This document shows positions 1 to 30,303 of a stretch of 32,000 nucleotides of DNA, one piece after another. Where the stretch lies: the NCBI GenBank assembly GCA_963676105.1, contig OY781039.1, positions 1,170,001-1,202,000 of the forward strand, written 5' to 3'. A program made the translations under genes and the position numbers. Position 1 is the stretch's first letter; every line of letters starts with the position of its first letter. The DNA comes from Erysipelotrichaceae bacterium. Lineage in GTDB: Bacteria > Bacillota_I > Bacilli_A > Erysipelotrichales > Erysipelotrichaceae. The notes beneath the pieces were generated by a model. That model was given only the letters and a program-made list of their open reading frames with translations. It was not told where the DNA came from and did not search any database.

Positions 1-158
1 CTATAAACGGCTTAATCCTATCTTTTATGCACCTTAAATATACTTGATTGACATAGAATTACATCAGAGTTCTGCTAGGAGGGGAAATTTAGGTGGAATC
101 GTAATTTTATTCATATGTAATAATGCATTCTCATGTTTATCTCAAACAATCCATTATC

Positions 159-437
159 TTACTTATTAATTGAATCCTTTAACTCATATAACGTAGCTTT
201 TTTTGTCGGTCTTCTATTAAAAATAGCTAAGTGAATAAGTAAGATTACAAAAAGTATAAACTGATTTAACCAATTCATCGATAACCAAAACCACCCACCA
301 TTAATAGCCACAACACTTGCGTTTGTATTATCAACATATTTGGCTAGATTATAGAATAGCGAAATTGAGTTAACAAAAGTTATTACACTTAAAATAAGCA
401 ATATTAAATCAACATCTTTAAAAAATCTCTTTACCAT
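159..437 (-). CDS. Small hypothetical membrane protein (92 aa, two predicted TM helices)
   Basis: ORF track. Two long hydrophobic stretches (LILLILSVITFV; FILFVILLIHLAIF). SD-like AAAGGAA just upstream of the ATG. It starts 10 nt after the stop of the upstream secreted-protein gene, so it is probably co-transcribed. No family recognised. Confidence 0.5.
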   Translation of the reverse strand: MVKRFFKDVDLILLILSVITFVNSISLFYNLAKYVDNTNASVVAINGGWFWLSMNWLNQFILFVILLIHLAIFNRRPTKKATLYELKDSINK

Positions 438-447
438 ATAATTCCTT

Positions 448-1131
448 TCAGTACCTTAAATGTGGATTACACAAACTAGATAATACTCCAAGATACCCCA
501 CATTGGGCACCCATCTTTCTAAATCCCATACTTTCTCAACTACGAGTTGTTTGTGGCACATATATTGATCATATAAACTACCATTGTCAATTTGAATCCC
601 AATATAAATCGTCTTCAATTCACTCCATGCTAAATTTGCTGCAAAATCAAGCACTCTAACTGATAGTTTAGGATCCAAACTATATGTCCAATAGTTATTT
701 CTTAAATGATATATATGCGAATAGAAATATTCATTTACAGTGCTTAAAGAAAATGTACTAAATACGTAAACATTTGAACTCGACACACTTACATTCTGTG
801 ATACTTCATCTAGTAAATCTTTCAAAGCTTCACTCTGTTCAAATTTATTATCTGACTGATTATAAATATATGATTCTAATCTTGAATTAACATCTTGTAT
901 CCATTTCTCGTTTTGAATAACAAAATCGCTAAGATCCTCTAATTTTAAGTTCTCTATTAAAACCATATCAGTGATTAATTGATCTCTATATTGAAATGTT
1001 TCATTATTTTCTTCTAAGATTGACTCTTCTTCCTTTGTATATAAATCTGGCATCAAAACTGTGCTCGCATTCACAGGACTAGCTAAACTAATAAAAAACA
1101 ATAATACAAATAAACTTTTTAAAACTTTCAT
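448..1131 (-). CDS. Secreted hypothetical protein with a C-terminal DUF2599-like domain (227 aa from the ATG at 1131)
   Basis: The ORF-track start at 1146 is a TTG. The ATG at 1131 (MKVLKSLFVLLFFISLASPVNAS) gives a canonical signal peptide and follows AAAGGAAG. The C-terminal segment ...AWSEL...DQYMCHKQL...WDLERWVPNVGY...LCNP resembles my recollection of the DUF2599 signature (Q..CH ... WNLE.wRP ... CNP). That call is unverified. Confidence 0.6.
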   Translation of the reverse strand: MKVLKSLFVLLFFISLASPVNASTVLMPDLYTKEEESILEENNETFQYRDQLITDMVLIENLKLEDLSDFVIQNEKWIQDVNSRLESYIYNQSDNKFEQSEALKDLLDEVSQNVSVSSSNVYVFSTFSLSTVNEYFYSHIYHLRNNYWTYSLDPKLSVRVLDFAANLAWSELKTIYIGIQIDNGSLYDQYMCHKQLVVEKVWDLERWVPNVGYLGVLSSLCNPHLRY

Positions 1132-1176
1132 AAATCTTCCTTTCAACTTAAAATCTTAAATTAAAAATATTTATAA

Positions 1177-1242
1177 CTAAACTCTTGGAATCTTATAATC
1201 AAATAACGATATTAACCATAATAGTAAATCTAAATCACCCAT
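1177..1242 (-). CDS. Unannotated 21-codon sORF (MGDLDLLLWLISLFDYKIPRV), a candidate signalling or regulatory peptide
   Basis: Hand-translated. The ATG at 1242 is preceded by GGGAGG (1252..1257) with 9-nt spacing, and by a minus-strand TATAAT at 1266..1271. TAG stop at 1177..1179, 45 nt before the secreted-protein ATG. Divergent from the HTH+TPR regulator. Too short for the ORF track, and coding status is unproven. Confidence 0.3.
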   Translation of the reverse strand: MGDLDLLLWLISLFDYKIPRV

Positions 1243-1279
1243 CTTTTTATTCCTCCCTTAGAATAATTATATTTTAAAT

Positions 1280-1289
1280 AATCATGATT
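1280..1289. promoter_or_regulatory. Perfect 10-bp palindrome AATCATGATT between divergent promoters (candidate operator)
   Basis: Read directly. It lies 9-18 nt upstream of the minus-strand TATAAT (1266..1271), where a -35 would be expected. It is also upstream of a plus-strand TTGATT(1306..1311)/TATAAT(1327..1332) pair, which has only a 15-nt spacer. Confidence 0.25.
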
Positions 1290-1316
1290 CTTGTCTATTC
1301 TTTTTTTTGATTTTAA

Positions 1317-2588
1317 ATGTTAAAGCGTATAATATTAGATAATATGAGCGACACTATATCAAATAATGGCTTTAACATTACAAAATTAATCATTGATCAA
1401 AGAAAACAGCTTAAATTATCTTTAAGAGAACTTTCTCAACTAACTAAATATAGTTATCAAACATTATCTAAATATGAAACAGGTGGTATTGAATTAAATA
1501 AGAACAATCGAGTAGTTCTATTTGAACACCTACACATAAATGCAGATGACGTTGATTATTTATCCAATGACTTTAAACAAGATTTAGACTTACTGTTTGA
1601 ATCGATTGTATATGACGAACAAGCTGAAATAAGTTCACTTTTCTCCAGAATTAAGAAAGCTGAAGAATATTTAGATTACACTAAATTTAGAGAAGAGTTT
1701 ATTACGCTAAAAATCATTGTATCAATCATCAATAATGAATCTATATCACAGGAAATGTTGAATGAATCACAATTCAATTCTTTTAAGCTATCTCTTCAAC
1801 AATGGATCTATGATTATATCGCTATTTATTACCTCAAAAACAATGATCTTATTAGGGCTGTAAAATATATTGATAAAGCGATATCTCTTGGGGTTCATGA
1901 ATCAAATGTTGGACTTGTCAATTACCATGCAGGAATCATCTATTCTGTCTATGGACAACTTTTAAAAGCTAGACACTATTTAGAAACAGCAGAAACTCAC
2001 TTCATAAAACAAAGAAACAATATAAGACTTATTAATCTTCAAATACAACTAACAACGGTTGAATCAAAACTAGGACAAGTCAATAAAGCACGAGCATCTT
2101 ATCTTAGACTGTTAAAAGACATCGAAAAAATTAATGATCACTATTCATTAAATGTTGTGTATCATAATCTATCCTGGTTGGAATATCGCCAAGAAAACTT
2201 TCAAGTTTCATTAGACTATCTAGATAAACTTGAGAAATCTCAAACATTAGACGAAAATGATCTCATCACCAAAATGTTATGTTTAACAGAACTTGAACAA
2301 TTTGATGAATCTGATTCTATTTACAAAAACAACACAATCTTGGATACAATGTATAAATTATATAGTGAGATTATTCACTTAGAAAATATCCATAAGATTG
2401 ATAAAAACTATGAAGCGAAATGTATGGAACTTTATCACATTATTAAAGATAAAAGAGACTTTGAAAATGTTGAAATCGTTATCTTCAAACTACTAGATTA
2501 CTACGAAATGAACCGTTTATATAAGAGTGCCTATGAACTCACCAAAGAACTTTATAGTTACATAGATTGGGTGTATCAACTCGATTAA
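1317..2588 (+). CDS. XRE-family HTH + TPR-like helical-repeat transcriptional regulator (RNPP-like: NprR/PlcR/Rgg type)
   Basis: N-terminal HTH_XRE signature (QRKQLKLSLRELSQLTKYSYQTLSKYETG). The remaining ~340 aa are helical with repeated A/Y/L patterns typical of TPRs (YYLKNNDLIRAVKYIDKAI; YHAGIIYSVYGQLLKARHYLETA). The 423-aa length matches NprR-size regulators. The start is uncertain: no SD precedes 1317, and the ATG at 1344 lies 12 nt after a TATAAT. Confidence 0.75.
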   Translation: MLKRIILDNMSDTISNNGFNITKLIIDQRKQLKLSLRELSQLTKYSYQTLSKYETGGIELNKNNRVVLFEHLHINADDVDYLSNDFKQDLDLLFESIVYDEQAEISSLFSRIKKAEEYLDYTKFREEFITLKIIVSIINNESISQEMLNESQFNSFKLSLQQWIYDYIAIYYLKNNDLIRAVKYIDKAISLGVHESNVGLVNYHAGIIYSVYGQLLKARHYLETAETHFIKQRNNIRLINLQIQLTTVESKLGQVNKARASYLRLLKDIEKINDHYSLNVVYHNLSWLEYRQENFQVSLDYLDKLEKSQTLDENDLITKMLCLTELEQFDESDSIYKNNTILDTMYKLYSEIIHLENIHKIDKNYEAKCMELYHIIKDKRDFENVEIVIFKLLDYYEMNRLYKSAYELTKELYSYIDWVYQLD

Positions 2589-2636
2589 TTTATGAACATC
2601 TTTTAAATTGATTTTTTCTTCTTTAAATTAAACAGT

Positions 2637-2669
2637 ACAAACAAAAGAGGTACTCGATTGAGAACCTCT
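2637..2669 (-). terminator. Rho-independent terminator, apparently the displaced original terminator of tRNA-Leu
   Basis: Stem AGAGGT(2646..2651)/ACCTCT(2664..2669) with an inner CTC/GAG pairing. On the minus strand it is followed by TTTTGTTTG (2637..2645). It lies directly after the tRNA-Leu 3'-end remnant at 2676..2700. Confidence 0.5.
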
Positions 2670-2675
2670 AATTTG

Positions 2676-2700
2676 CATACATGTTGCGCGTGACAGGATT
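2676..2700. repeat. Direct repeat (left att-like copy): remnant of the tRNA-Leu 3' end
   Basis: CATACATGTTGCGCGTGACAGGATT matches 4393..4417 (CATACATGGTGCGCGTGACAGGAAT) at 23/25 positions in the same orientation. Confidence 0.7.
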
Positions 2701-2832
2701 ATATGTTTTCACTGTCTTTGATTGATATAAGTTGCTTTTAATTGCTTAAACTAGTCTTTAATATGCTTTAATTTTACTAGATTGTTCTTAATTTGCATTA
2801 TAAACTCTTTGGCAGAGGGGATTTTGGGGGAA

Positions 2833-3675
2833 TTAGAAAAGACGAATTCTTTTAAGCATTAATTCTAGAATCACTATTGATTCACTAATATCAACATTTT
2901 TAGAATAAGCATTTTCGTTTTGATATCTATTCCATGAAGTCTTTACAATATTTGATTGCGATACGTCATTTAAAATAATCTTTGAATTATTCAACGCATC
3001 AAATGAGTTTCTATTATTAGTTGTATTAATTAAAGCTTCTCTTAATTGATCCCATTTAATTTCATCTTTTTTAATTTTGTAAAGTAAATATATGTCATAA
3101 AAATCTCTAGCTCGAGTGTTAATAACACCTCTTGATAAAATCGTTTCAATCTTTTCAGCAAGTATTGTCTCAAGCGTATAAGTATAAATGTTTACCCCTT
3201 TTTCACTAAACAAAAATTTATATTGATATTCAATTTCTTTAGGTGTTATTACATCCCCAGTAGTAATATCAATTTTTAAAGGCACAATAATCTTCTCATA
3301 AACCGCTTCAATAGAAACAGAGAAATTTTGATACTGATCTTTTTTTCGTATTGGAATGATAGATTTAAAATTGAAGAAAATTAAGTCATCAATTTTTATA
3401 GTAATAATATCTAAAACCATTTTTCTTATCGCTTCTTCCGTCATTGGATAATTGACAATAGTTGTATCCATATCCATAGTTGATCTTTCAGAAATACCAG
3501 ATAATGAGGCAACTAATAATCCACCTTTTAACACAAGATTCTTTTTATACTTTGACAGAGAAATGCGCTCAATTAATCTTTCGAACATGAAGACTTGTAA
3601 TAATTCTTGAGCTGAAATGTTTTTCTCAACCGACAAATTTCTTAAGTAACCCTTTAATTGTTCTGGTGACTTCAT
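2833..3675 (-). CDS. abiEii: AbiEii/AbiGii-family nucleotidyltransferase toxin (DUF1814)
   Basis: 280 aa. N-terminal LKGG motif followed by a MDMD acidic pair (LVLKGGLLVASL...RSTMDMDTT), typical of AbiEii nucleotidyltransferases. The ATGA overlap with the upstream antitoxin gene indicates translational coupling. Confidence 0.8.
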   Translation of the reverse strand: MKSPEQLKGYLRNLSVEKNISAQELLQVFMFERLIERISLSKYKKNLVLKGGLLVASLSGISERSTMDMDTTIVNYPMTEEAIRKMVLDIITIKIDDLIFFNFKSIIPIRKKDQYQNFSVSIEAVYEKIIVPLKIDITTGDVITPKEIEYQYKFLFSEKGVNIYTYTLETILAEKIETILSRGVINTRARDFYDIYLLYKIKKDEIKWDQLREALINTTNNRNSFDALNNSKIILNDVSQSNIVKTSWNRYQNENAYSKNVDISESIVILELMLKRIRLF

Positions 3676-4277
3676 GTAAGTACCTCGATATATTTGAAAA
3701 TTTCATTCTCTATTTTTAATTTTTTTGCATATTCCATCAATCTTCTTGAATTAATATTTTGGTTCTTAAAGTATTGATTCAATGCATCAGAGAATATTTG
3801 TGGATCTATGTCTTTTTTGTTCTTGATAATATCACAAATCGTTCGCTCGATATTGTAGCATCTTACTACCATACCCTGAGGTGATTTAATTTCTTCTAAA
3901 CCTAATTCAAATAATTCATGCTTGTCGTATTTAAATCGTATTTTCGCATTTTTAATTCTGTGAGTGTTATATCCTTTTTTAACCGTTAATGAAATAATAT
4001 TAGGAACTCTATTAGAATAACCATGAAAATACAAGGCTGTCCCTAGTGAATAAATAGAATTAGGTGCGTTTAATTGTAATAAATAATATTCATCAATAAT
4101 GTCATTTGCAAAAATATATACTCCCCTTTTAATATGAACTAAAACTCCGGATTCCACTAAACTAGATAATATTTCTCGTCTAATTCCTAATTCTTTTAAT
4201 TCTTTCGTAAATAAAACACCATTGTTTTGTTTAGCTTTTTTTCTTAATATTTCAATATTCTTTTCTTTTTGTACCAT
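3672..4277 (-). CDS. abiEi: AbiEi-family antitoxin / transcriptional autoregulator (type IV TA)
   Basis: 201 aa. The N-terminal winged-helix segment (GVLFTKELKELGIRREILSSLVESGVLVHIKRGVYIF) matches the AbiEi_4 pattern. It sits immediately upstream of abiEii and overlaps it by 4 nt. Confidence 0.8.
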   Translation of the reverse strand: MVQKEKNIEILRKKAKQNNGVLFTKELKELGIRREILSSLVESGVLVHIKRGVYIFANDIIDEYYLLQLNAPNSIYSLGTALYFHGYSNRVPNIISLTVKKGYNTHRIKNAKIRFKYDKHELFELGLEEIKSPQGMVVRCYNIERTICDIIKNKKDIDPQIFSDALNQYFKNQNINSRRLMEYAKKLKIENEIFKYIEVLT

Positions 4278-4366
4278 TGTGCTTTTATTTTATCATTTGT
4301 AAGCACGTTTGTACAATTATATTTACTTGGGTAACTCATAACCGCGTAACGTCACCATGGTACAAA
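4268..4366 (-). promoter_or_regulatory. abiEi promoter with three copies of a TTTGTAC(C)ATTGT-type motif (candidate AbiEi operator)
   Basis: 4268..4281 TTTGTACCATTGTG. A direct copy at 4308..4320, TTTGTACAATTAT (11/13). An inverted copy at 4353..4366 (13/14). Minus-strand extended -10 TGATAAAAT at 4287..4295, and a TTGTAC -35 at 4311..4316 inside the middle copy. The ATG (4277) lies only 9 nt after the -10 and has no SD. Confidence 0.4.
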
Positions 4367-4385
4367 AAAAGCCGAATAATTCGGC
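4364..4385 (-). terminator. Rho-independent terminator after tRNA-Leu
   Basis: GCCGAAT-A-ATTCGGC hairpin (4371..4385), followed on the minus strand by a run of 7 T (4364..4370). Confidence 0.6.
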
Positions 4386-4392
4386 ATTTCTT

Positions 4393-4417
4393 CATACATG
4401 GTGCGCGTGACAGGAAT
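4393..4417. repeat. Direct repeat (right att-like copy) covering the last 19 nt of tRNA-Leu plus 6 nt of flank
   Basis: See 2676..2700; 23/25 identity. Confidence 0.7.
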
Positions 4418-4483
4418 CGAACCTGCACGGGTCACCCCGCTAGATCCTAAGTCTAGTGCGTCTGCCAGTTTCGCCACACGCGC
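4399..4483 (-). tRNA. tRNA-Leu (anticodon TAG), class II with a long variable arm, CCA encoded
   Basis: Reverse complement GCGCGTG..CTAGA-CTTAGGA-TCTAG..GGGGTGACCCGTG..CAGGTTCGATTCCTG-TCACGCGC-ACCA folds as a cloverleaf. Acceptor stem GCGCGTG/CACGCGC. 85 nt. Confidence 0.9.
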
Positions 4484-4495
4484 AAATGCTAGTAA

Positions 4496-4523
4496 ATTAT
4501 AACATAAACATTGTTTATGACAA
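4496..4523 (-). promoter_or_regulatory. Sigma-A-type promoter for tRNA-Leu
   Basis: Minus strand: TTGTCA (4518..4523), a 16-nt spacer, then TGT-TATAAT (extended -10; hexamer 4496..4501). It lies 12 nt upstream of the tRNA 5' end. Confidence 0.55.
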
Positions 4524-5850: not shown

Positions 5851-5920
5851 ATAAGTTCTGTCCCCTTATTTTTCTTGTCTATCATACACTAAAATTATTA
5901 TAAAAGAAAAGAAGATGATT

Positions 5921-5949
5921 ACAAATAAAAAGATATCCGAAGATATCTT
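5921..5949 (-). terminator. Rho-independent terminator ending the peptide-transport/amidohydrolase operon
   Basis: Perfect 8-bp stem AAGATATC-CGAA-GATATCTT (5930..5949), followed on the minus strand by TTTTTATTTGT. Confidence 0.7.
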
Positions 5950-5952
5950 TAA

Positions 5953-7140
5953 CTAATCTTTATTTAAATACATAATTGCTGATTCAGCTAAAATTGCTGA
6001 AGCTTTTGATAAAACTGTTTCATCAATATCAAACTTTGGATGATGGTGCGGTACATCAAATCCAAGTGATTCTTTCTTACCACCAATAAACATGAAACAA
6101 CCAGGTACTTTTTCAATGAAATAGGAATAATCTTCACTTCCCATGATTGGATTTTCCATTTCAATCAGTTTATCAGCTCCATATAATTCAGTAACGGCCG
6201 CACGAACAATATCACTCGCTCCTTTAGCGTTAATAGTTGTTGGATAAAGGTTAGTATAGATTAACTCATAACTAGCTCCATGTGATTCGACAACACCTTT
6301 AACTAATTGATCAATCATCTTAGGAAGTTGAGCTCTAAGTTCAGGATTAACTGAGCGAATACTTCCTTTCATATTTGCAGTATCAGGGATAATATTATTA
6401 GCTGTTCCTGCATTCATCATAGTAATCGAAAAGACTAAGTTTTCAAACGCACTAATCTTACGATTCATAATTGCCATCAAGTTATTATAGACTTGAACCA
6501 TCACATAGACTGGATCAATTGTTGTTTCAGGTGATGATGAATGGCCACCTTTCCCTTGGATTTTTATCTCAAAGAAATCTGGTGCTGCCATCATAGCTCC
6601 GTCTTTAACCATAACCATTCCTTCAGGTAGTGTTGATTGAACATGTGCACCGAATGCAAAGTCTACTTTTGGATTTTCAAGGACCCCTTCTTTAATCATT
6701 CTTTCTGCACCGCCTGGTCCCTCTTCAGCAGGTTGAAAAACAAACTTAACGTTGCCACTAAACTTATCAGTCATTTTTGAAAGAATTCGAGCAGTACCTA
6801 GTAACCACGCCGTATGCGCATCATGACCACATGCATGCATTAGTCCTGGATTTTGTGATTTATAAGGTACATCACTATCTTCATCCATCCTTAAGCAATC
6901 CATGTCAGCACGTAATAATACGGTTTTACCTGGTTTTTTTCCTTTTAGTAAACCAACAACCCCTGTTACACCTACTTCAGTTTGAACGTCCATCCCTAAA
7001 CGCTTTAACTCTTTAGCTACAATTCCAGCTGTACGAACTTCTTCGAGTCCTGGTTCTGGATGCATATGAAAGTCACGTCTAAACTCAACTAGACTACCTT
7101 GTTCAAGGCTTGCCAATTTTAAAATTTCGTCTTTATACAT
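5953..7140 (-). CDS. M20D-family amidohydrolase (N-acyl-amino-acid / hippurate hydrolase type), paralog 1
   Basis: 395 aa. MHACGHDAH metal-binding motif, FQPAEEGPGGA and GKGGHSS, typical of the Ama/HipO/HyuC group. SD GAGGAG. Confidence 0.9.
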   Translation of the reverse strand: MYKDEILKLASLEQGSLVEFRRDFHMHPEPGLEEVRTAGIVAKELKRLGMDVQTEVGVTGVVGLLKGKKPGKTVLLRADMDCLRMDEDSDVPYKSQNPGLMHACGHDAHTAWLLGTARILSKMTDKFSGNVKFVFQPAEEGPGGAERMIKEGVLENPKVDFAFGAHVQSTLPEGMVMVKDGAMMAAPDFFEIKIQGKGGHSSSPETTIDPVYVMVQVYNNLMAIMNRKISAFENLVFSITMMNAGTANNIIPDTANMKGSIRSVNPELRAQLPKMIDQLVKGVVESHGASYELIYTNLYPTTINAKGASDIVRAAVTELYGADKLIEMENPIMGSEDYSYFIEKVPGCFMFIGGKKESLGFDVPHHHPKFDIDETVLSKASAILAESAIMYLNKD

Positions 7141-7154
7141 ATCTATATTCTCCT

Positions 7155-8345
7155 CTAGAAATCTTGATTTAAATAGAGTAAGGCTGTCTCTGCTAAAATT
7201 GCAGATCCTTTACTCAAAACCGTTTCATCAATATCAAATTTTGGATGATGATGTGGTACATCAAAACCCAAATCTTCTTTTTTAGCACCAATAGATATAA
7301 AACTACCTGGTACTTTCTCTAAAAAATATGAGAAATCTTCTCCACCCATCGAAGATTGCGTCATTTCATTAATTTTATCTTCGCCATATAGCTCAGTAAC
7401 AGCTTCTCGGACTAAATCTGTAGAAGCCTTATCGTTGATTGTGGCTGGATATAAATGATTATATTCAAAGGTATAGCTAGCTCCATGTGATTCAACAACA
7501 CCTTTAATCAGTTTTTCAAACATTTCAGGTAATTGTGCTCTTAGTTCTGGATTAACCGAGCGAATACTTCCTCCTAAGCTTGCGCTATCTGGAATAACAT
7601 TATTGGCACTACCTGCTTGAAATTTTGTAATTGAAATAACAAGATTATCAAATGCACTAATTTTGCGGTTCATAATGGTCATAAGGTTACTATATACTTG
7701 ATGACCAATTGATAGTGGGTCAATACATTCTTCAGGACGTGAAGAATGACCACCTTTACCTTGTATTGTAAGATCAAAAAAGTCAGGTGCAGCTGTCATT
7801 GGCCCATCTTTAATATTGACATAACCTTCTTTAACTTGCGACGAAATATGCGCACCAAAAGCGACATCAACATGTGGATTTTCCATCACACCTTCCGCGA
7901 TCATTCTTTCAGCACCACCTGGTCCCTCTTCAGCTGGTTGAAAAACAAATTTTATATTTCCACTAAATTTGTCTGTCATTTGCGATAGAATGCGAGCTGT
8001 TCCTAATAACCAAGCCGTATGGGCATCATGTCCGCAGGCGTGCATTAAACCAGGATTTTGAGATTTATAAGGAACATCATTTAACTCATCCATTTTTAAA
8101 CAATCCATATCAGCTCTAAGCAAGACTGTTTTACCGGGTTTATGACCTTTTAAAAGACCAACAACACCTGTTACTGCAATGCCTGTTTGTACTTCTAAAC
8201 CTAATTTTTTTAATTCTTTTGCGACAATGCCAGCTGTCCTAAACTCTTCAAGTCCAGGTTCTGGAAACATGTGGAAATCTCGCCGAAATTCGACGAGATC
8301 TCCTTGAATATTTTCAGCATATTTAAGAATTTCTTCTTTAAACAC
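7155..8345 (-). CDS. M20D-family amidohydrolase, paralog 2 (GTG start)
   Basis: 396 aa, collinear with paralog 1 and roughly three-quarters identical by eye. The start codon is GTG, 3 nt after the SBP gene stop and preceded by AGGTGA. The N-terminus MFKEEIL aligns with MYKDEIL of paralog 1. Confidence 0.9.
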   Translation of the reverse strand: MFKEEILKYAENIQGDLVEFRRDFHMFPEPGLEEFRTAGIVAKELKKLGLEVQTGIAVTGVVGLLKGHKPGKTVLLRADMDCLKMDELNDVPYKSQNPGLMHACGHDAHTAWLLGTARILSQMTDKFSGNIKFVFQPAEEGPGGAERMIAEGVMENPHVDVAFGAHISSQVKEGYVNIKDGPMTAAPDFFDLTIQGKGGHSSRPEECIDPLSIGHQVYSNLMTIMNRKISAFDNLVISITKFQAGSANNVIPDSASLGGSIRSVNPELRAQLPEMFEKLIKGVVESHGASYTFEYNHLYPATINDKASTDLVREAVTELYGEDKINEMTQSSMGGEDFSYFLEKVPGSFISIGAKKEDLGFDVPHHHPKFDIDETVLSKGSAILAETALLYLNQDF

Positions 8346-8348
8346 TAA

Positions 8349-9959
8349 TTATTCACCTAATTTCCATTCCCATACTGCAAAGTTACCTAAAGGAATATCT
8401 TCCATACCGATACTATCACCTAAGTATGATGTGTATGCATAGTCATTGAATGTCGCAACATATTCAATAAATGGAGGTTCTTCTAACCAAGTTTGTTGGT
8501 AATCCATCATAATTTGAGTACGTTCTTCATCAGATGTAGCTGCCATAAATGCATCATAGTAATCATCCCAAGTATCATCAGCTGTATTGATAAGTGTAGC
8601 TGCATCATTTGTTAAAAGATTACGTAAATACATTGGGTTTGTTTGGAAGTTCATATTAACTAAACCAATCGATGTTGAACCATCATAGAAACCAGCAAAC
8701 ATAGTTGCAGCTTCAGTAACTTGTACTTCAACAGGTAAACCAATATCAACTAAGTTTTGAGCAATAATGGTTGCACATTTTTCACGAGCACCTGGAGGCG
8801 TTGAGAATGTGATTGTTTCAGATAAATCAATCGCACCATCAGCTGCTGCTTCAGCAATTAGAGCTGCCGCTGTCTCTTGATCAAATGTAGGAACCATAAT
8901 TTCATTAAAGTATGCTGAGTTTGCAGGAATTGGTCCCTCAATTGGTGCTGCACGACCTAACATATTCGCAACTGCTTCACGATCAATCGCTAAGTCAATT
9001 GCTTGACGAATTCTAACATCAGAATAAACAGCTTGGTTAACAAATAACATATAAGGTTGATCAGGTGTTTCAGGATAGAAAATAGTTAAATGATCAACTG
9101 CTTCAAAGGATGAAATATCATCACTTGATAATGCTGGATAAGCCATATCAACATCGCCTGCAATCATCGCAGAAGCCATGTTAGAAACAGCCATAACTGT
9201 AATTTTAAACTTACCAAATTCAGCAACACCTAAATAATAATCAGGATTTGCTGCCATTACGATTTCACTACCAGCAATTTGACTTTCAAATAGTAATGGT
9301 CCATTTGTAAGCGGGTTATTCCAATACTCTAAACTTGCATAAGTACTTGGATCAGTTCCTTCAAGTTCGTGTTTTGGTAAAGCTAAATAGTAATTAATAT
9401 ATGAAGGGAAAGTAACTGCTTCATTGATTGGTGAATCAAAAGTATAAACTAAAGTATAGTCATCAATAGCTTCAACACCTAAAGTTGTCCCATCTGCATT
9501 ACCAGATGTATCAGTCCCCGTAATTATACTGTAATAAGATTTTTGATCCACCACATTCATTGGATCAGTAATTAATTCTGCTGCAAAGACATAATCTTCA
9601 GCTGTAACAGGTTCTCCATCACTCCATACAGCTGCATCATTTAAATAAAATGTAGCTGTTAAGCCATCTTCTGAAATTTCCCAATCTTTAGCGGCTCTTT
9701 CAGTAATGTTACCTGCACCATCAACGTAAGTTAAACGATCATATAATAGACCTAAAACAAGACCACTATAGTAACCACCTGAACCACCATTGTATGGTAC
9801 TAAATCTTTCCATGCACTACCCATTGCGAGTGTAACAACCGTATCAGAATAGTCAACTTCTTCACTTGTTGTGTCACTTGACGAAGATGAACAAGCAGTG
9901 AGTAATGAAATACTTAAGACTAAAATCATACTAATTTTGAATAACTTTGATAATTTCAT
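8349..9959 (-). CDS. Peptide/nickel-family (family 5) ABC substrate-binding lipoprotein
   Basis: OppA/DppA-like size and composition. The preferred start is the ATG at 9959 (MKLSKLFKISMILVLSISLLTAC), preceded by GAGGAG with 7-nt spacing. Lipobox LLTAC. The ORF-track start at 9974 adds 5 aa and has no SD. Confidence 0.9.
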   Translation of the reverse strand: MKLSKLFKISMILVLSISLLTACSSSSSDTTSEEVDYSDTVVTLAMGSAWKDLVPYNGGSGGYYSGLVLGLLYDRLTYVDGAGNITERAAKDWEISEDGLTATFYLNDAAVWSDGEPVTAEDYVFAAELITDPMNVVDQKSYYSIITGTDTSGNADGTTLGVEAIDDYTLVYTFDSPINEAVTFPSYINYYLALPKHELEGTDPSTYASLEYWNNPLTNGPLLFESQIAGSEIVMAANPDYYLGVAEFGKFKITVMAVSNMASAMIAGDVDMAYPALSSDDISSFEAVDHLTIFYPETPDQPYMLFVNQAVYSDVRIRQAIDLAIDREAVANMLGRAAPIEGPIPANSAYFNEIMVPTFDQETAAALIAEAAADGAIDLSETITFSTPPGAREKCATIIAQNLVDIGLPVEVQVTEAATMFAGFYDGSTSIGLVNMNFQTNPMYLRNLLTNDAATLINTADDTWDDYYDAFMAATSDEERTQIMMDYQQTWLEEPPFIEYVATFNDYAYTSYLGDSIGMEDIPLGNFAVWEWKLGE

Positions 9960-10013
9960 TTTGAATCTCCTCATTTTTGTTTATATCTATTTTGTCTGGA
10001 TAAAAATTTTATC

Positions 10014-11030
10014 TTATGATTTTGAGAGCTCTTCTGCATAAGGACAAGCTACTTTGTGCCCTCCGCCTAAATCCTCAAGATTAGGCTCACTAAGTGAACA
10101 AGCCTCTTGTGCAAAAGGACATCTTGTATGAAAGCGACAACCCAGTGGCGGAAAAAGTGGACTCGGTACATCCCCCGTAAGAATTATACGGTCACGCTTT
10201 TTCGTCGCATCAGGAATTGGAATCGCTGACAACAAGGCTTTTGTATACGGATGTAAAGGATTGCTAAAGATTTGATCTTTGGTTCCAAATTCAACTAGCT
10301 TACCCAAATACATAACCGCAACTTTGTCACAAATATAACGAACAACTGACATATCATGAGAGATAAACAGATAAGAAACTCCTGTTTCTTTTTGAGCATC
10401 TTTCATGAGATTCAATACTTGAGATCGTACTGATACATCAAGCGCTGATACAGGTTCATCACATAAGATAAAGGATGGTTTAATAACCAATGCTCTTGCG
10501 ATAACTACACGCTGTCTTTGTCCCCCGGACAATTCATGCGGTAGCTTCTCAAACTGATAATCCCCCAAACCTACATAACGAAGAATTTCTTGAGCTTTCT
10601 CAATCTTTTCTTCTTCGCTTCCCATCTTAAACGCATCAAGTGGTGCTTTCACCAAATCAATGATGGTTTTATGTGGGTCTAAAGAGGCGTAAGGATCTTG
10701 AAATATAATTTGCATCTCCTTACGGAAAGGACGGAACTTTTTGAAGTTATAATCAACAATATTTTCACCCTTGAAATACATTGATCCTTCAGTGGCTGGT
10801 TGTAAACCTAAGATGGCTCGACCAATCGTTGATTTACCACATCCACTTTCTCCAACAAGTCCAACTGTCTCACCAGGGTAGATGTCCAGACTAACACCAT
10901 CTACGGCCTTTACAGACTGTTTTCCTTTTCCTATTCCTCCGCGAACTGGAAAGTGTTTCTTTAAATTAAACAGTGATACTAGAGGTTCATCTTTTGGGAA
11001 ACTCGTTTCTCTTTTTGTCATTTTTGTCAC
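10014..11030 (-). CDS. Oligo/dipeptide ABC transporter ATP-binding protein (OppF/DppF type)
   Basis: Walker A GESGCGKST, signature LSGGQRQR, Walker B ILCDEP. The C-terminal Cys-rich oligopeptide-transporter extension is present. Confidence 0.9.
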   Translation of the reverse strand: MTKMTKRETSFPKDEPLVSLFNLKKHFPVRGGIGKGKQSVKAVDGVSLDIYPGETVGLVGESGCGKSTIGRAILGLQPATEGSMYFKGENIVDYNFKKFRPFRKEMQIIFQDPYASLDPHKTIIDLVKAPLDAFKMGSEEEKIEKAQEILRYVGLGDYQFEKLPHELSGGQRQRVVIARALVIKPSFILCDEPVSALDVSVRSQVLNLMKDAQKETGVSYLFISHDMSVVRYICDKVAVMYLGKLVEFGTKDQIFSNPLHPYTKALLSAIPIPDATKKRDRIILTGDVPSPLFPPLGCRFHTRCPFAQEACSLSEPNLEDLGGGHKVACPYAEELSKS

Positions 11031-11039
11031 TCTCCCTTC

Positions 11040-12023
11040 TCATGCTTTATCGAAAAGGAAACACCTAACTTCATGTCCTTTTTCGATTTCTACTAAGGCT
11101 GGTTTTTCAACCTTACAGCGGTCAAAACATTTCGCGCAACGATTCGAGAAACGACACCCCACTGGCATTTCACTCAGTGATGGAACAGTTCCAGGAATCG
11201 AGTTTAGTTTTTCCATATCCTTATCAACACGTGGTAATGATTCAAGTAAACCATTTGTGTAAGGATGTTTTGGTTTTGAGAAGATTGTTTTTGCACTTGC
11301 GTATTCAACAACTTCTCCAGCGTACATAACCATGACATAGTCGGACATTTCTGCCACGACTCCCATATCATGGGTAATCAGTAATATTGCGGTATTCATC
11401 TCTTCTTGAAGATCTTTCATTAGATCTAAAACTTGAGCCTGAATGGTGACGTCTAGTGCCGTAGTTGGTTCATCCGCTATCAGTAAATCCGGTCTTGATG
11501 ATAATGCCATCGCAATCATGACTCTTTGACGCATCCCACCAGATAACTGATGAGGATATTCATGCATCCTTTGTTCAGGTGCAGGAATTCCAACTTTTTC
11601 TAAGAACTCTCGCGATTTTTCCCAGGCTTCTTTTTTACTCATTTTGTTATGAGCTAGAAACATTTCAACTAATTGATGACCAACTCTATGAGCTGGATTT
11701 AATGAAGTCATTGGTTCTTGAAATATCATTGATATTTTCTTACCTCTAACTTCTCGCATTTCCTTATGACTCAATTTTGTTATGTCTTGTCCTTGAAAAT
11801 TAATACTTCCATTGGAAATAATGCTTGTCTGTTGAGGCAATAAACGAAGGATTGTATTAGCGGTAACCGATTTACCACATCCAGATTCACCCACGATACC
11901 TAAGATTTCACCTTTATGAACTTTAAATGTGACATCTTCAATCGCAGTGAGTTTTGATTTTTTACCTGTTCTAAATTGAACTTGTAATTGTTGAACATCT
12001 AAGACAACATCTGTCATATTCAA
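11040..12023 (-). CDS. Oligo/dipeptide ABC transporter ATP-binding protein (OppD/DppD type)
   Basis: Walker A GESGCGKS, signature LSGGMRQR, Walker B LIADEPTTALD, and a C-terminal oligopeptide-type extension. Confidence 0.9.
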   Translation of the reverse strand: MNMTDVVLDVQQLQVQFRTGKKSKLTAIEDVTFKVHKGEILGIVGESGCGKSVTANTILRLLPQQTSIISNGSINFQGQDITKLSHKEMREVRGKKISMIFQEPMTSLNPAHRVGHQLVEMFLAHNKMSKKEAWEKSREFLEKVGIPAPEQRMHEYPHQLSGGMRQRVMIAMALSSRPDLLIADEPTTALDVTIQAQVLDLMKDLQEEMNTAILLITHDMGVVAEMSDYVMVMYAGEVVEYASAKTIFSKPKHPYTNGLLESLPRVDKDMEKLNSIPGTVPSLSEMPVGCRFSNRCAKCFDRCKVEKPALVEIEKGHEVRCFLFDKA

Positions 12024-12032
12024 TCCTCCTTT

Positions 12033-12899
12033 CTATATCCTCTTCATTTTTGGATCAAGCGCATCACGCAATCCTTCACCGACAAAATTGATACATACAA
12101 TTGTGATTACCAACAAACTTCCAGCTGGAATCCATATCCACCAGCGTTGCGTAAGCACAGCTAAATTTGTAGCTGCTTGAATGATATTCCCCCAAGATGC
12201 TTCTGGTGGTTGTATCCCTGCACCTAAGAAACTTAAAGCAGATTCAGTAATCATTGCGCTTGATGTTAGAAAGGCAAGTGACACCCAAAGTGGAGCAATT
12301 GAGTTTGGCATAACGGTTTTAAAGATAATCTTCAAATCGCTACTCCCTATCGCTCTTTCAGCTTCAATAAATTCTTTACTTCTAACCGATAAGACATTCC
12401 CATAAATTAGTTTTGCGGTGGAAGGCCATCTCAGAATTCCAATAAGGAAAATAATAATCGCGACATTTGATCCAAAGACCGCAACCACTACAAGGATTAA
12501 AACCATTGCGGGAAATGATTGAAAGATATCAGCTGATCTCATAACAAATGTTTCAACTCGTCCTCTGTAATAGCCAGCTAAGGTCCCTAGTGGTAATCCA
12601 ACAAGAACACTGATAATCATGGCTGAAACACCAATCATAATTGAATTACGTCCACCATATATAAGTCTGGCTAACATATCTCGTCCTAACTCATCTGTCC
12701 CTAAGATATGAATATCATTAGGTGCAGTTTTGAAGGCCATTTTATCAATCTCATATGGATCTAAATCCATAATCAGTGGTAAAACAACAACTAATATGAC
12801 TTCTATTAAAACAACTATTAAACCAAACATCGCCATTTTATGGTGACTGAAGTTTTTGATAAGCTCTTTTAATTGTCTATGTTTATCTTTTTTCATCAC
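12033..12899 (-). CDS. Peptide ABC transporter permease (OppC/DppC type)
   Basis: 288 aa polytopic protein. N-terminal LGTDELGRD motif and the EAA-loop region (EAERAIGSS) typical of DppC/OppC. Confidence 0.9.
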   Translation of the reverse strand: MMKKDKHRQLKELIKNFSHHKMAMFGLIVVLIEVILVVVLPLIMDLDPYEIDKMAFKTAPNDIHILGTDELGRDMLARLIYGGRNSIMIGVSAMIISVLVGLPLGTLAGYYRGRVETFVMRSADIFQSFPAMVLILVVVAVFGSNVAIIIFLIGILRWPSTAKLIYGNVLSVRSKEFIEAERAIGSSDLKIIFKTVMPNSIAPLWVSLAFLTSSAMITESALSFLGAGIQPPEASWGNIIQAATNLAVLTQRWWIWIPAGSLLVITIVCINFVGEGLRDALDPKMKRI

Positions 12900-12911
12900 T
12901 TCAGTCCTTTC

Positions 12912-13865
12912 TTAATCAAATCGAATTTTTGGATCTAGGAATGCATAAACTAAATCAATGATTAAGCTTATAACCAAAACCGCTCCCGAGATAAGTACAG
13001 TCACTCCCATAATGGTGTTATAGTCACGTTGCGCAATTGATAGAATCATGAGTGATCCCATTCCAGGCCAAGCAAAGACTTGTTCTGTAACTACTGCTCC
13101 CCCAACAAGCAAAGGAACTGTTGTCCCAATGGTTGCGACAATCGGAATCCAAGCATTTCTCAATATGTGTTTAACAATAACTTGAAATTCAGATAAACCT
13201 TTCGCACGAGCTGTTTTAACATATTCTTCATTCATGACATTGAGTACACTTCCACGTGTTTGTTTTACAAACGTTCCTAACATTTGAATAACTAAGACAA
13301 AACAAGGAAGTATTAAATGCCTTAACAAATCTGCGAAATCTCCACCACCATTGGAAGCATACATTCCCATTGCTGGTAAGAGTTTAAATTGAATCGCAAA
13401 TAGATAAACCAAAACTAATGCGACAAAGAAGTTTGGTGCTGCCGCACCCAAGAAGGAAAGAGCTGATGAGAGATTATCCCAAAAGGAATAAGGTCTCATT
13501 GCGGCAAGCACACCAATCGGAATCGCAATTAGAAGTGAAACTAATAATGCACTACCCGTTAATGTAATGGTTGGTACAATACGTTCTTTTAGTAATACCC
13601 ACACTGGCATATTAGTTCTAGTAGAAATCCCTAAGTTACCTTGAAGAACATCACCTAACCAAATAAAGTACCTTACAATAACTGGTTTATCCAAACCATA
13701 TTGGATAATTAAAGCTTGTTCTGCTTCAGCTGTAATATCCCCAGCTGATTTGATAATATCAACTGGACTACCTGGCGCTGCATTACTTAACATAAAGACA
13801 ACGAAAGTAATGATAAAGAAGGTTGGTATTATTTGAAATAATCTTTTTAATATATAACGTCCCAT
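12912..13865 (-). CDS. Peptide ABC transporter permease (OppB/DppB type)
   Basis: 317 aa. N-terminal MGRYILKRL...PGSPV, and the EAA-loop YVKTARAKGLSE typical of DppB/OppB. Confidence 0.9.
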   Translation of the reverse strand: MGRYILKRLFQIIPTFFIITFVVFMLSNAAPGSPVDIIKSAGDITAEAEQALIIQYGLDKPVIVRYFIWLGDVLQGNLGISTRTNMPVWVLLKERIVPTITLTGSALLVSLLIAIPIGVLAAMRPYSFWDNLSSALSFLGAAAPNFFVALVLVYLFAIQFKLLPAMGMYASNGGGDFADLLRHLILPCFVLVIQMLGTFVKQTRGSVLNVMNEEYVKTARAKGLSEFQVIVKHILRNAWIPIVATIGTTVPLLVGGAVVTEQVFAWPGMGSLMILSIAQRDYNTIMGVTVLISGAVLVISLIIDLVYAFLDPKIRFD

Positions 13866-13877
13866 ACACTTCCTCCT

Positions 13878-15311
13878 TTAGATGTATTCAGGTGCTTTAA
13901 TTGATTTATCAAGTGGACAATCATAAACACCATTATTTTTTTCCATAAACTCTGCTTGAGCTTCTTTAATTTTGTCTGGATTTTCTAACATTTTGATTGA
14001 TGCCAGTGCCATGATTTTTCCAGCTGTTAACATTCCTTTGTGACCAATTGAAGATTTGCCTTGACCTGTCATTTGCCATGAATGTCCTGGTGTTCCTAAA
14101 CTTTCAGTAGCGACACTGATCATAACCGTTGGTGCGATATATCCTACATCTCCAACATCTGTAGAACCTGTCACAATCTTACGAACGTTTTTGTTGTAAG
14201 CACAGGCTTTTGTATCAAGTGGTTTTTCTAAAATTGATTCTACTTGATCTTTCCCATAACGCTCACTAATGAGTTTTACTTCAGCATCCTTACTATTTGG
14301 ACTAATGGTTTCATCAAAAGCTTTGGCTAATTCATAATCTGCTTCATCCCACTCAGGTGCACCAATTTCTTCCATCGCTTCAGATGCGACAAGTGCAAGC
14401 ACTTCATTTGGAATATACTCTGCATATGAACTTTGAAGTTGCCATTCAACTGTAGTCCCGCTCATCAGAGCGGCCCCTTTGGCGATATTATCAATACGTT
14501 CTGATATTTCTCTGATTTGAGACGTATATGGTGCTCTGCACACATATCTAATAGAAGCTCTATCTTGAACAATATTTGGTGCTTCACCACCTACATCTAG
14601 GTAAGCATAATGAATTCGTGCTTCAGGGATGACATGTTCTCTTAGATAATTTGATCCCACATTCATGAGTTCAACACTATCCAGTGCTGATCGGCCAAGA
14701 TGAGGTGCTCCACCGGCGTGAGCTGTAATCCCTTTAAAGGAATAAACTTTATTAAAGTTGCCTACAAAGTGAGCATTCATGACATCAGTTGTTGTGCTTG
14801 GATGCCATGTATAGAAGAAATCTACTCCATCAAATGCTCCATCTCTTGCCATAAAAGCTTTACCTGCACCACTCTCTTCAGCAGGTGTACCAAAATAAAT
14901 AACAGTTCCTGATTGTTTTGTTTCTTCTAGGTATTCTTTAATCGCAACTGCTGCCGCTAAGCAACCTGTACCCAACATATTGTGACCACAACCATGTCCT
15001 CGTCCTTTTTCAACTAACTCTTCTTTAACTGGACTAGCACCAATTTGACTTAAACCTGGTAATGCATCATATTCACCCAATAGACCAATGACTGGATATC
15101 CACTTCCCCAAACACCTTTGAATGATGTCGGAATATCGACTAGATTTGTTTCAACTTCAAATCCTTCTTCTTCAAGTGCTTTGCATAATAGTGCTTGTGA
15201 TTTAAATTCTTGATAACCGCCTTCTGCATAACCCCAAATCAAATCACTAATCTCAATAAACTTTTTACTTTTTGCCCCAATACTTTTTTCTACAAACGTT
15301 TTCGCATCCAT
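13878..15311 (-). CDS. M20-family amidohydrolase, AbgB-like (aminobenzoyl-glutamate hydrolase subunit B type)
   Basis: 477 aa. GHGCGHNMLG metal-binding motif and GTPAEE. Size and layout match the AbgB group. SD GGGAGA. Confidence 0.85.
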   Translation of the reverse strand: MDAKTFVEKSIGAKSKKFIEISDLIWGYAEGGYQEFKSQALLCKALEEEGFEVETNLVDIPTSFKGVWGSGYPVIGLLGEYDALPGLSQIGASPVKEELVEKGRGHGCGHNMLGTGCLAAAVAIKEYLEETKQSGTVIYFGTPAEESGAGKAFMARDGAFDGVDFFYTWHPSTTTDVMNAHFVGNFNKVYSFKGITAHAGGAPHLGRSALDSVELMNVGSNYLREHVIPEARIHYAYLDVGGEAPNIVQDRASIRYVCRAPYTSQIREISERIDNIAKGAALMSGTTVEWQLQSSYAEYIPNEVLALVASEAMEEIGAPEWDEADYELAKAFDETISPNSKDAEVKLISERYGKDQVESILEKPLDTKACAYNKNVRKIVTGSTDVGDVGYIAPTVMISVATESLGTPGHSWQMTGQGKSSIGHKGMLTAGKIMALASIKMLENPDKIKEAQAEFMEKNNGVYDCPLDKSIKAPEYI

Positions 15312-15329
15312 CTTTTTTCTCCCTAATTT

Positions 15330-15989
15330 CTAACTATTTCTAAACATGTAATCATCAAAGAAAGCTTTACCCATCTTTTCTTCTAAAGCTTTAAGTATGA
15401 CTTTTACACAAGCTTCTTTACTTAATCGTCCACTGTTAAGTGTTAAGTCATAATTGACTGGATTGGTCCAATAATTTCCTTTGGTATAAAACGCATAATA
15501 ATCAGCACGATACTTATCAGTTTTTGTAATTAACTTATCAGCTTCTTTCTCATCAACATCCAATCGATCCATGACTTGTGCTCGACAGTAATCACGCGGC
15601 GCTTCTATATATACGCTCAAAACATTATTTCGATCTTTTAGAATATGATCAGCACATTTGCCAACAATGACGCAAGATGAACTATCAGCAAGCTCTTCTA
15701 TAATTTTCTTTTGAAAATCATAGATGACTTCATTCGATACAAATCGAGTTGTAACAGGATGTGAACCAAAGTGCTTTGGAAAGTTTGCTAATTTATTTAG
15801 AAGTAAGTTTCCTTTTAATTGTTCATCTTGTTCAACAAAGTAATGTTCATCATAACCACTCAATTGAGATGCCATAGTGAGTATCCTGTTTTCAAAACTA
15901 TGTACTTTTAATTCATCAGCTAACATCGCTGCGATTTCACGACCACCACTGCCAAACCCTCGTGCGATTGTAATAATGAAGTTATCCAT
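15330..15989 (-). CDS. Cytidylate-kinase-like family P-loop protein
   Basis: The N-terminus ITIARGFGSGGREIA is typical of the cytidylate kinase-like (Cytidylate_kin2) family. The preferred start is the ATG at 15989, preceded by GGGGAGAGAG with 6-nt spacing. The ORF-track start at 16016 adds 9 aa. Confidence 0.75.
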   Translation of the reverse strand: MDNFIITIARGFGSGGREIAAMLADELKVHSFENRILTMASQLSGYDEHYFVEQDEQLKGNLLLNKLANFPKHFGSHPVTTRFVSNEVIYDFQKKIIEELADSSSCVIVGKCADHILKDRNNVLSVYIEAPRDYCRAQVMDRLDVDEKEADKLITKTDKYRADYYAFYTKGNYWTNPVNYDLTLNSGRLSKEACVKVILKALEEKMGKAFFDDYMFRNS

Positions 15990-16154
15990 ATGCTTCTCTC
16001 TCCCCTGATTATTCATATATGTAATTCAACTGAAACGTTTTAGTTTACTTGAATTTAAAACGAGTTTAACATGCAAAATATATAAAAAACATTACTTATT
16101 TAGTATGTTTTCATATTTTTTACATATATTTGAAAATTTTTCATTATATTCAAA

Positions 16155-16182: not shown

Positions 16183-16213
16183 GAAATATATTTGCCTATT
16201 TTTGATATAAAAC

Positions 16214-16242: not shown

Positions 16243-16258
16243 CTTGATTTATAATAGA

Positions 16259-28645: not shown

Positions 28646-28646
28646 A

Positions 28647-30302: not shown

Positions 30303-30303
30303 A

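Follow-up and report, generated by a model that had tools for sequence, protein, structure and literature searches.

An AbiE operon behind tRNA-Leu(TAG)

We analysed a stretch of 32,000 nucleotides (nt) of an Erysipelotrichaceae bacterium (GenBank assembly GCA_963676105.1, contig OY781039.1, positions 1,170,001 to 1,202,000), called the window in the following; positions are those of the window unless a contig is named. Close to its left end, an abiEi-abiEii operon is bracketed by two copies of a 25-nt sequence, one of which is part of a tRNA gene. This gene is an intact tRNA-Leu(TAG) with encoded CCA on the minus strand (4399..4483), detected by ARAGORN and by Rfam (56.7 bits), and the Rfam search yielded only tRNAs. 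The right, tRNA-proximal copy of the repeat (4393..4417, CATACATGGTGCGCGTGACAGGAAT) consists of the last 19 nt of the tRNA, that is, the 3' half of the T-loop, the T-stem, the acceptor strand, the discriminator and CCA, plus 6 nt of flank, and it represents an attL-type junction. The left, tRNA-distal copy (2676..2700, CATACATGTTGCGCGTGACAGGATT), an attR-type junction, agrees with it at 23/25 positions in the same orientation; one of the two mismatches turns CCA into ACA and the other is in the T-loop. Both copies had been described in a first-pass annotation that was based on the sequence, and we found them as described there. They are the only two copies in the window when up to three mismatches are allowed, and none of 100 dinucleotide-preserving shuffles contained a match. 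When compared by eye to the 28-nt, dif-like XerC/XerD sites that flank Xer-dependent elements (IMEX / pdif modules), this core is a tRNA 3' end that does not have the 11-6-11 dif architecture.

Between the two repeats, abiEi and abiEii are the sole genes, both on the minus strand. The product of abiEi (3672..4277, 201 aa) is an antitoxin and transcriptional regulator; it is matched over its full length by the AbiEi model of PADLOC (2.9e-65) and passes the Pfam cut-off of 25 bits for AbiEi_4 with 27.3 bits. The product of abiEii (2833..3675, 280 aa) is a DUF1814 nucleotidyltransferase toxin (PF08843, 2.9e-32; PADLOC AbiEii over the full length, 3e-90). The two genes overlap by 4 nt (ATGA, 3672-3675). 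The closest solved structure to AbiEii is PDB 9hlo_B, named 'AbiGII' (4e-43), and the KGG, D.D, ETILAEK and DFYD stretches align between the two. Known AbiE systems are bicistronic overlapping operons in which the antitoxin comes first, with a DUF1814 nucleotidyltransferase toxin and a winged helix-turn-helix (wHTH) antitoxin (PMC3985639; PDB 9hlo). The operon in the window resembles these in its layout, its toxin domain and the N-terminal wHTH of its antitoxin, and, judged by its sequence, the identity of the cargo as AbiE is secure. The operon would function as a type IV toxin-antitoxin (TA) abortive-infection module, with AbiEii as the nucleotidyltransferase toxin and AbiEi as antitoxin and autorepressor.

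A promoter-like site for the operon was found by a sequence scan at 4287..4315 on the minus strand (TGTACA, 17-nt spacer, TG-TAAAAT), at a distance of only about 80 nt from the core. A hairpin terminator, consisting of GCCGAATTATTCGGC and a T-run, leads into the bracketed DNA from the tRNA (4358..4392, minus strand). Its stem (4364-4385) was detected by the terminator scan and folds with -16.1 kcal/mol (z = -5.3), and we infer that it terminates tRNA-Leu. Another minus-strand hairpin terminator follows the left core (2637..2669), with a stem at 2646-2669, a T-tract at 2637-2645 and a folding energy of -16.5 kcal/mol (z = -5.0); the simple terminator scan missed it because of one internal mismatch in the stem. 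Thus, both terminators of the first-pass annotation are borne out as structures. No terminator that belongs to the abiE operon is present ahead of the non-coding DNA that separates it from the left core. Read-through from abiE would end at the hairpin at 2637-2669, which is also located downstream of a convergent HTH-TPR gene; in a circular form, the hairpin stopping abiE would be the cassette's own.

As had been stated before, the bracketed DNA comprises only the operon and its promoter and is devoid of a recombinase: the list of open reading frames (ORFs), Pfam, PADLOC and tblastn revealed no integrase, excisionase or transfer gene in it. A tblastn search with four tyrosine integrases gave only noise across the window, with neither an integrase nor a remnant, and the other large ORFs of the window are housekeeping or transport genes. 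The GC content is 27-31% over positions 1-4500 versus 35-40% in the remaining window. Taken together, the region at 2676-4483 is framed by the complete target gene on one side and by a directly repeated piece of its 3' end on the other, which is the layout of an att element.

Cassette boundaries and arrays in relatives

The closest species representative is the chromosome of an Erysipelotrichaceae metagenome-assembled genome (L001, OY760660.1; 80-87% nucleotide identity by blastn). Its homology to the right edge of the bracketed DNA spans a TrxB-like gene, a META-domain gene and the tRNA, and ends exactly at 4399, the last base of CCA. Homology to L050 (86%), a 110-kb ENA contig that was found via a cluster member of the META protein, breaks off at the CCA of the tRNA or close to it. 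Behind the identical tRNA, L001 has a different terminator and then a 445-aa tyrosine integrase on the opposite strand (PF00589, 5.7e-20, plus an N-terminal SAM-like domain) and unrelated island genes. Since this integrase-bearing element uses the same site, the 3' end of tRNA-Leu is a live integration site in the clade. The contigs of two other relatives end inside the tRNA (L037) or are cut before it (L002), and neither shows the downstream context. A metagenome scan with an alignment of META proteins returned one irrelevant 1-kb contig only, and an exact-protein look-up of the META and AbiEii proteins of the window matched no record.

For the left edge, we used ten metagenomic contigs (L038-L047) that were reached via homologues (76-91% identity) of the HTH_3+TPR protein encoded in the left flank. 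Nine of them (L038-L046) match the window from about position 1070, with 84-90% identity over 1073-2698, and stop at 2698 inside the left repeat. In the place of AbiE, L038-L043 carry a pair of genes for proteins of 154 aa and 63 aa, and L046 carries a Fic-like and an AAA_25-like fragment. In the tenth contig, L047 (77%), the match runs on through the 132-nt non-coding segment at 2701-2832 and diverges at the stop codon of abiEii (2833). Both core copies thus coincide with synteny breakpoints (4399 in L001 and L050; 2698 in L038-L046), and because synteny breaks at both junctions, 2701-4398 is a discrete unit. This coincidence supports, from comparative sequence data, the proposal of the first-pass annotation that the repeats are an att-type scar, left by DNA that integrated site-specifically into the tRNA-Leu 3' end.

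When searching with the 14-nt centre of the core, we found additional copies in the contigs themselves: three in L038 (1003, 3808 and 4815), four in L039 (6, 1033, 3838 and 4845) and two in L045 (1000 and 3746). The core copies of the arrays reproduce the tRNA 3' end including CCA, with up to 27/27 nt, and the partial copies are in no case tRNA genes. Each copy is followed, in the direction of the tRNA, by about 9 nt and then by a hairpin with a T-run. The units between the copies in L038-L047 include a RelB/ParE pair (about 1.0 kb), an HTH-TPR gene with a secreted protein (2.8 kb) and the 154/63-aa unit (1.0 kb); a further unit encodes a Peptidase_C39-like protein and a paralogous HTH-TPR protein. 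Several contigs break off exactly at a core, which is what an assembly is expected to do at a variable repeat.

The array is complete in L050, where tRNA-Leu(TAG) at 10469-10553 is followed by five further cores (13133, 14802, 17032, 17362 and 18594) and, after the last core, by a convergent ABC-F gene and a PHP-domain gene, presumably the backbone. The first cassette, C1 (2.6 kb), encodes a Schlafen/AlbA_2 + HATPase_c_4 protein and two small ORFs, and C2 (1.65 kb) encodes a DUF2599 protein and orf92. C3 (2.2 kb) contains an AAA_14/DUF4143 ATPase, which PADLOC assigns to the candidate defence family PDC-S01 (2.9e-140), and a 172-aa ORF. C4 is geneless; its 330 nt (17046-17361) consist of a leading terminator of the AbiE type and an arm (family A, see below). 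C5 (1.2 kb) carries RelB/ParE. All cargo genes of this array are oriented like the tRNA. The empty C4 could be a spent vehicle or a deletion product.

The Fic-domain fragment and the AAA_25/RepA-like ATPase fragment of L046 (1700-3091) adjoin the shared core. This cargo suggests an earlier use of the same att site by a larger replicative element.

Altogether, the core sequence bounds cassettes in six independent relatives, and tRNA-Leu(TAG) is the chromosomal, attB-bearing gene that anchors the array. A chance match, or a dispersed repeat that has nothing to do with integration, could point to the two mismatches between the copies in the window and to nothing more. This explanation is refuted by the shuffled controls, by the copy number of two in 32 kb and by the position of both copies at synteny breakpoints, and the same sequence bounds the cassettes of the relatives; we give it practically no credence.

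Junction modules, the neighbouring cassette and mobility

The cassette junctions are modular and consist of an arm of about 130 nt, the tRNA core and a hairpin terminator. The conserved junction unit is TCCTGTCACGCGCACCATGTA, which is the tRNA 3' end, and it is followed by terminator hairpins that are unrelated to each other. We distinguished three families of arms. Arms of family A have a CCCCTAGT-N3-CCCCTAGTTTTAA pair about 100 nt from the core and then about seven 10-nt repeats of the GG(G/T)AAG type. Family B is characterized by phased repeats of the TAAAG type and includes the non-coding segment behind abiEii (2701..2832). This segment has about 84% identity to the ends of C2 and C3 of L050 and about 75% to L047; thus, four cassettes with unrelated cargo share this end, which is independent of the cargo and a candidate P-arm of the att site. 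Family C has a GGTGTCAC pair. Lag-10 autocorrelation resulted in z = 4.0-5.0 for families A and B (4.0 for 2701-2832) and was not significant for family C, and Tandem Repeats Finder reported a weak period of 10 at 2737-2772 of the window and at 1028-1082 of L038.

CCCTAGT heptamer pairs occur only in arms of family A (L038, L039, L045 and L050). In L001, CCCCTAGT-N3-CCCCTAGTTTTAA is present at 12010-12066, beside the 3' end of the tRNA-Leu integrase gene, and nowhere else in the locus. This distribution hints that the CCCTAGT pairs may be arm-type sites for the integrase family of L001.

The hairpins are of at least three types with unrelated sequences. The hairpin and core at the head of the AbiE cassette (4362-4415) are 98% identical to L050 17032-17085, the head of the empty C4. 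Hairpins of the type GAGGTTCTC...GAGAACC occur at 2637-2669 in the window, after two internal cores of L038 and after the last core of L050 beside the backbone. This type may go back to the ancestral terminator of the tRNA.

The DNA to the left of this hairpin (1..2636) is a neighbouring cassette of the same array. It contains an HTH_3+TPR regulator (1317-2588, plus strand), a DUF2599 secreted protein (448-1146, minus strand; both from Pfam) and orf92 (159-437, minus strand). Positions 10-1395 are 89% identical to C2, an internal cassette of the six-core array of L050, and 1073-2698 belong to the region shared with L038-L046 (84-90%) and L047 (77%). The first approximately 105 nt of the window align to the beginning of an additional family-B arm (about 130 nt), and 60 columns of the alignment, up to the end of the core, fall outside the window. 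Hence, the next tRNA 3' copy (TCCTGTCACGCGCACCA-like, minus strand) should lie about 36-50 nt outside the window on this side. The suspicion of the first-pass annotation that 1-2636 is other island DNA was therefore correct. As 10-1395 corresponds to C2, the hairpin at 2637-2669 is internal to the array, and the claim that it is the original tRNA terminator, stranded at the far end, is not upheld for this window.

HTH_3+TPR (RNPP-like) regulators with divergent signal-peptide proteins (DUF2599 or Peptidase_C39-like) were observed in two cassettes, at 1317-2588 of the window and at 7099-7530 of L038. The pair looks like a recurring type of cassette and could be a peptide-signalling or bacteriocin-like module. 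In addition, the 90% cluster of the protein encoded at 1317-2588 holds a second, non-identical member of 423 aa (P0132), which is either a paralogous copy elsewhere in the source genome or comes from a second assembly version.

The internal position of the hairpin also affects the simplest history of the locus, that is, a single island that entered at tRNA-Leu in one event and has since lost all but its addictive AbiE module, leaving the original tRNA terminator (2637-2669) at its far end beside unrelated older DNA. The geometry of the window fits such a history, a GAGGTTCTC-type hairpin does lie at the terminal array-backbone junction of L050, and the integrase next to the closest AbiE homologues is visibly decaying in some Erysipelothrix strains, where its ORF is split. 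However, the hairpin is adjoined on its left by an array cassette and not by backbone, a family-B arm begins at the left edge of the window, and in L038, L039 and L045 a further tRNA 3' copy and then a RelB/ParE cassette come after the HTH-TPR segment. Furthermore, the ends of the AbiE cassette are common to cassettes of unrelated cargo, which is unexpected from random decay, tblastn found no integrase remnant, and the core is separated from the abiE promoter by only about 80 nt. We thus consider a single decayed island improbable. The description of the locus as an AbiE islet holds for a discrete, integrase-less unit of 1.7 kb; it does not hold for an isolated one, as the unit is one cassette of a larger array of the kind seen in L050.

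The explanation that we favour, and hold to be probable, is a tandem accretion of integrase-less cassettes at the 3' end of tRNA-Leu(TAG) in an uncultured Erysipelotrichaceae lineage, with 2701-4398 as one cassette. The cassettes would resemble cis-mobilizable elements (CIMEs), in which attL and attR are kept and the integrase is absent. In the direction of the tRNA, each cassette has first a hairpin terminator and then its cargo, which mostly points the same way as the tRNA and would have its own promoter; a non-coding arm (about 130 nt) comes next, and last is a stretch of about 25 nt that repeats the tRNA 3' end with T-loop, acceptor strand and CCA and a further 4-6 nt. A promoter-like site after the terminator was seen in the AbiE cassette, the one cassette that was analysed for promoters. 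The array would have grown as circular elements with the tRNA 3' end in their attP integrated repeatedly and site-specifically, catalysed by a tyrosine integrase like the one beside the same tRNA in L001, which would now be located elsewhere and act in trans or be lost. Each leading hairpin would terminate the tRNA or the operon of the preceding cassette. The cargo (AbiE, RelB/ParE, Fic and the PDC-S01 ATPase) would serve phage defence, and toxin-antitoxin addiction would stabilise the array.

Several observations weigh against tandem accretion. The GAGGTTCTC hairpin is both terminal (L050) and internal (the window and L038), which is not predicted by simple crossover at the core. An integrase that could act on the cores in their own genome was not identified in the 32-kb window, and no excised circle or free element with attP was present in viral, phage and plasmid collections: two scans of viral contigs with core 21-mers gave 0 matches, and BLAST of 2600-4500 against phage and plasmid collections returned only tRNA and short AbiEii stretches. 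A strict empty site, in which tRNA-Leu is directly followed by the 2637-2669 hairpin and which the first-pass annotation had proposed to look for, was not found among the relatives compared; in its place, we have relatives in which other cassettes occupy the same two junctions. These relatives are metagenomic contigs at 77-90% identity and not strains of the same species. Finally, it is an alignment that predicts a further core beyond position 1, outside the window.

The double position of the GAGGTTCTC hairpin leads to a different view of the turnover of the array. Simple crossover at the core cannot spread this hairpin, because the chromosomal B' arm stays put in such a crossover. This points to some homologous recombination or gene conversion between junction modules, unless the attP of a cassette mimics attB. 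The cores and junction modules might be fossils of old integrations, and the present turnover between strains might run through the repeated junction modules (60-190 nt) by homologous recombination or gene conversion, for instance after DNA uptake, and without a dedicated site-specific recombinase. In agreement with this, no integrase or remnant was found by tblastn in 35 kb of array contigs, nor among the called genes of L050 in the complete array or 10 kb to each side; arm families and hairpin types occur in mosaic combinations; and mismatches are present in the left core of the window (two) and in one core each of L038, L047 and L050. On the other hand, most cores match the tRNA 3' end perfectly over 21-27 nt whereas the adjacent DNA differs by 10-25%, and the breakpoints are located at the 14-25-nt core instead of being scattered through the longer modules. 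Moreover, the sister species L001 has a live-looking integrase at the exact site, and its flank shares the CCCCTAGT pair with the family-A arms. We therefore judge it possible, yet on balance unlikely, that the cores are only fossils.

Tandem accretion could also be the visible side of a more active system. In this case, the array would be a working cassette platform anchored at the tRNA and integron-like in function, where a dedicated tyrosine integrase in trans captures, excises and reshuffles mini defence and TA cassettes via composite sites of about 190 nt, made up of an arm with helically phased repeats, the tRNA-Leu 3' core and a terminator hairpin. The integrase would be encoded elsewhere in the genome or on an element of the L001 type, the three arm families would serve it as alternative modules for recognition, the cassettes would bring their own promoters, and after each insertion the hairpin would ensure that transcription of the tRNA or of the upstream cassette is terminated. 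We put this forward tentatively, as an unlikely but conceivable extension of cassette accretion.

Outside the array, the window contains a block of about 9-10 kb (5912-16258) without a counterpart in L001, L002, L037 and L050, where a cytidylate-kinase-like gene directly precedes the TrxB-like gene. The block comprises two M20 amidohydrolases in tandem, an Opp-type peptide ABC transporter, a third M20 peptidase and a cytidylate-kinase-like gene, and it looks like a strain-specific insertion or duplication-expansion. We also observed a tRNA-Ile(GAT)/tRNA-Ala(TGC) pair at 30227-30380 (also at 28570-28722) with no rRNA in the window, and the layout is the same in L001. Such pairs are usually located in the 16S-23S spacer.

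Origin of the cargo and comparison to known systems

Among 5.8 billion proteins, the nearest homologues of AbiEii are only 58% identical and belong to Erysipelothrix rhusiopathiae, E. amsterdamensis, E. larvae and similar metagenomic contigs. We inspected 16 genomic contexts of five of these proteins. A tyrosine integrase is divergent from abiEi in 14 of the 14 contexts with enough upstream sequence; the other two (L034 and L035) end too near abiEi to show it. The int-abiEi-abiEii module is conserved in Erysipelothrix-type genomes (L026-L035, L048 and L049). In E. rhusiopathiae, it is located downstream of guaA, and the integrase is split into ORFs of 228 aa and 119 aa in several strains. The abiE-linked integrases of Erysipelothrix are about 80% identical to each other and 25-28% identical to the L001 integrase. 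No convincing direct repeats were detected around the Erysipelothrix module, and no far repeat of the L001 integrase island was found within the 9 kb available.

At the DNA level, the window is 68% similar to the abiE operons of Erysipelothrix over 3077-4315, which includes the promoter region and excludes the cassette ends. Since its nearest homologues are 58% identical, found in Erysipelothrix-type genomes and linked to an integrase, the abiE operon was acquired horizontally, and in the window it is carried by a cassette with end modules of the local array. The AbiE of the window thus differs from its relatives not only in sequence but also in its integrase-less cassette, as opposed to the integrase linkage of the relatives wherever the upstream flank is readable.

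We compared the array to known systems with similar features. CIMEs keep attL and attR without integration or transfer genes, and accretion refers to successive site-specific integrations (PMC5704250). Examples are the elements related to ICESt1 and ICESt3 in Streptococcus thermophilus and the composite islands at tRNA-Lys in S. agalactiae (PMC5704250). The array is similar to these in being att-flanked, integrase-less and in tandem at the 3' end of a target gene. It is different in that at least five or six units are stacked, that the units are tiny (0.33-2.8 kb), that the arm and hairpin families at their ends are conserved independently of the cargo, and that the complete array has neither an integrase nor a partner among integrative and conjugative (ICE) or integrative and mobilizable (IME) elements.

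Another example of tandem islands has been described at ssrA of Dehalococcoides, where a 20-bp repeat of the 3' end is accompanied by extra conserved nucleotides (PMC3146451). These islands are about 12 kb in size, a CcrB-like serine recombinase is present in 16/31, and about half are without an integration module and have been proposed to be CIMEs (PMC3146451). They share with the array the tandem arrangement behind a small RNA gene, the 3'-end repeats and the frequent lack of an integration module; however, they carry reductive dehalogenases, whereas the units of the array are smaller and carry toxin-antitoxin and defence genes. The tycheposon islands of Prochlorococcus target tRNAs, neighbouring elements have only a partial tRNA between them, additional partial tRNAs and degenerate remnants are scattered over the island, and the cargo includes defence genes (bioRxiv 10.1101/2020.12.28.424599). 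Tycheposons bring their own integrase and replication module (bioRxiv 10.1101/2020.12.28.424599), whereas neither an integrase, nor a fragment of one, nor a replication module was seen in the array, save for the AAA_25-like fragment in L046. The AbiE cassette and the L050 array are thus not tycheposons, and only L001 has an integrase at the tRNA.

Chromosomal integrons and clusters of attC sites lacking integrases (CALINs) consist of short, co-oriented cassettes with structured repeat sites, among them TA cassettes, and CALINs have no adjacent integrase. In integrons, a common Pc promoter drives cassettes that mostly lack one of their own. The array resembles both in its short and mostly co-oriented cassettes, its repeat sites of about 60-190 nt and its TA cassettes. 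Accordingly, it could be asked if it is a true integron-type platform, where an IntI-like integrase acts on folded single-stranded, attC-like sites with the hairpins as substrates. The size of the cassettes (0.33-2.8 kb), their orientation, the hairpin in every junction and the TA cassettes, as in sedentary chromosomal integrons, agree with this possibility. In contrast, no integrase adjoins the array, what is conserved is the tRNA 3' end and not an R''/L''-L'/R' palindrome, and the hairpins are ordinary terminators with a GC stem and a T-run. The cassettes also appear to have their own promoters, as read from the promoter-like site of the AbiE cassette, and the anchor is a tRNA instead of attI. 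With neither IntI nor attC sites (GTTRRRY boxes) found, we reject membership in the integrons and regard an integron-type mechanism as very improbable.

The known framework that remains closest to the array is the accretion of CIMEs. Unusual are the integron-like size of the cassettes, their standardised, cargo-independent ends, the complete lack of integrase genes and of fragments of them in a whole array and the dominance of TA and defence genes. A shallow search of the literature revealed no direct precedent for integron-like cassette arrays at a tRNA.

If cassette accretion is true, a gut-type Erysipelotrichaceae lineage with a small genome (about 1.96 Mb) would keep a store of swappable defence and TA genes behind one tRNA. 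This store would have the form of a compact array of integron-size cassettes with standardised ends and no recombinase of its own. For the annotation of such genomes, an integrase-less 'islet' beside a tRNA would have to be read as part of an array. Furthermore, the integrase of the L001 type and the CCCCTAGT-bearing arms offer a testable pairing for mobilisation in trans.

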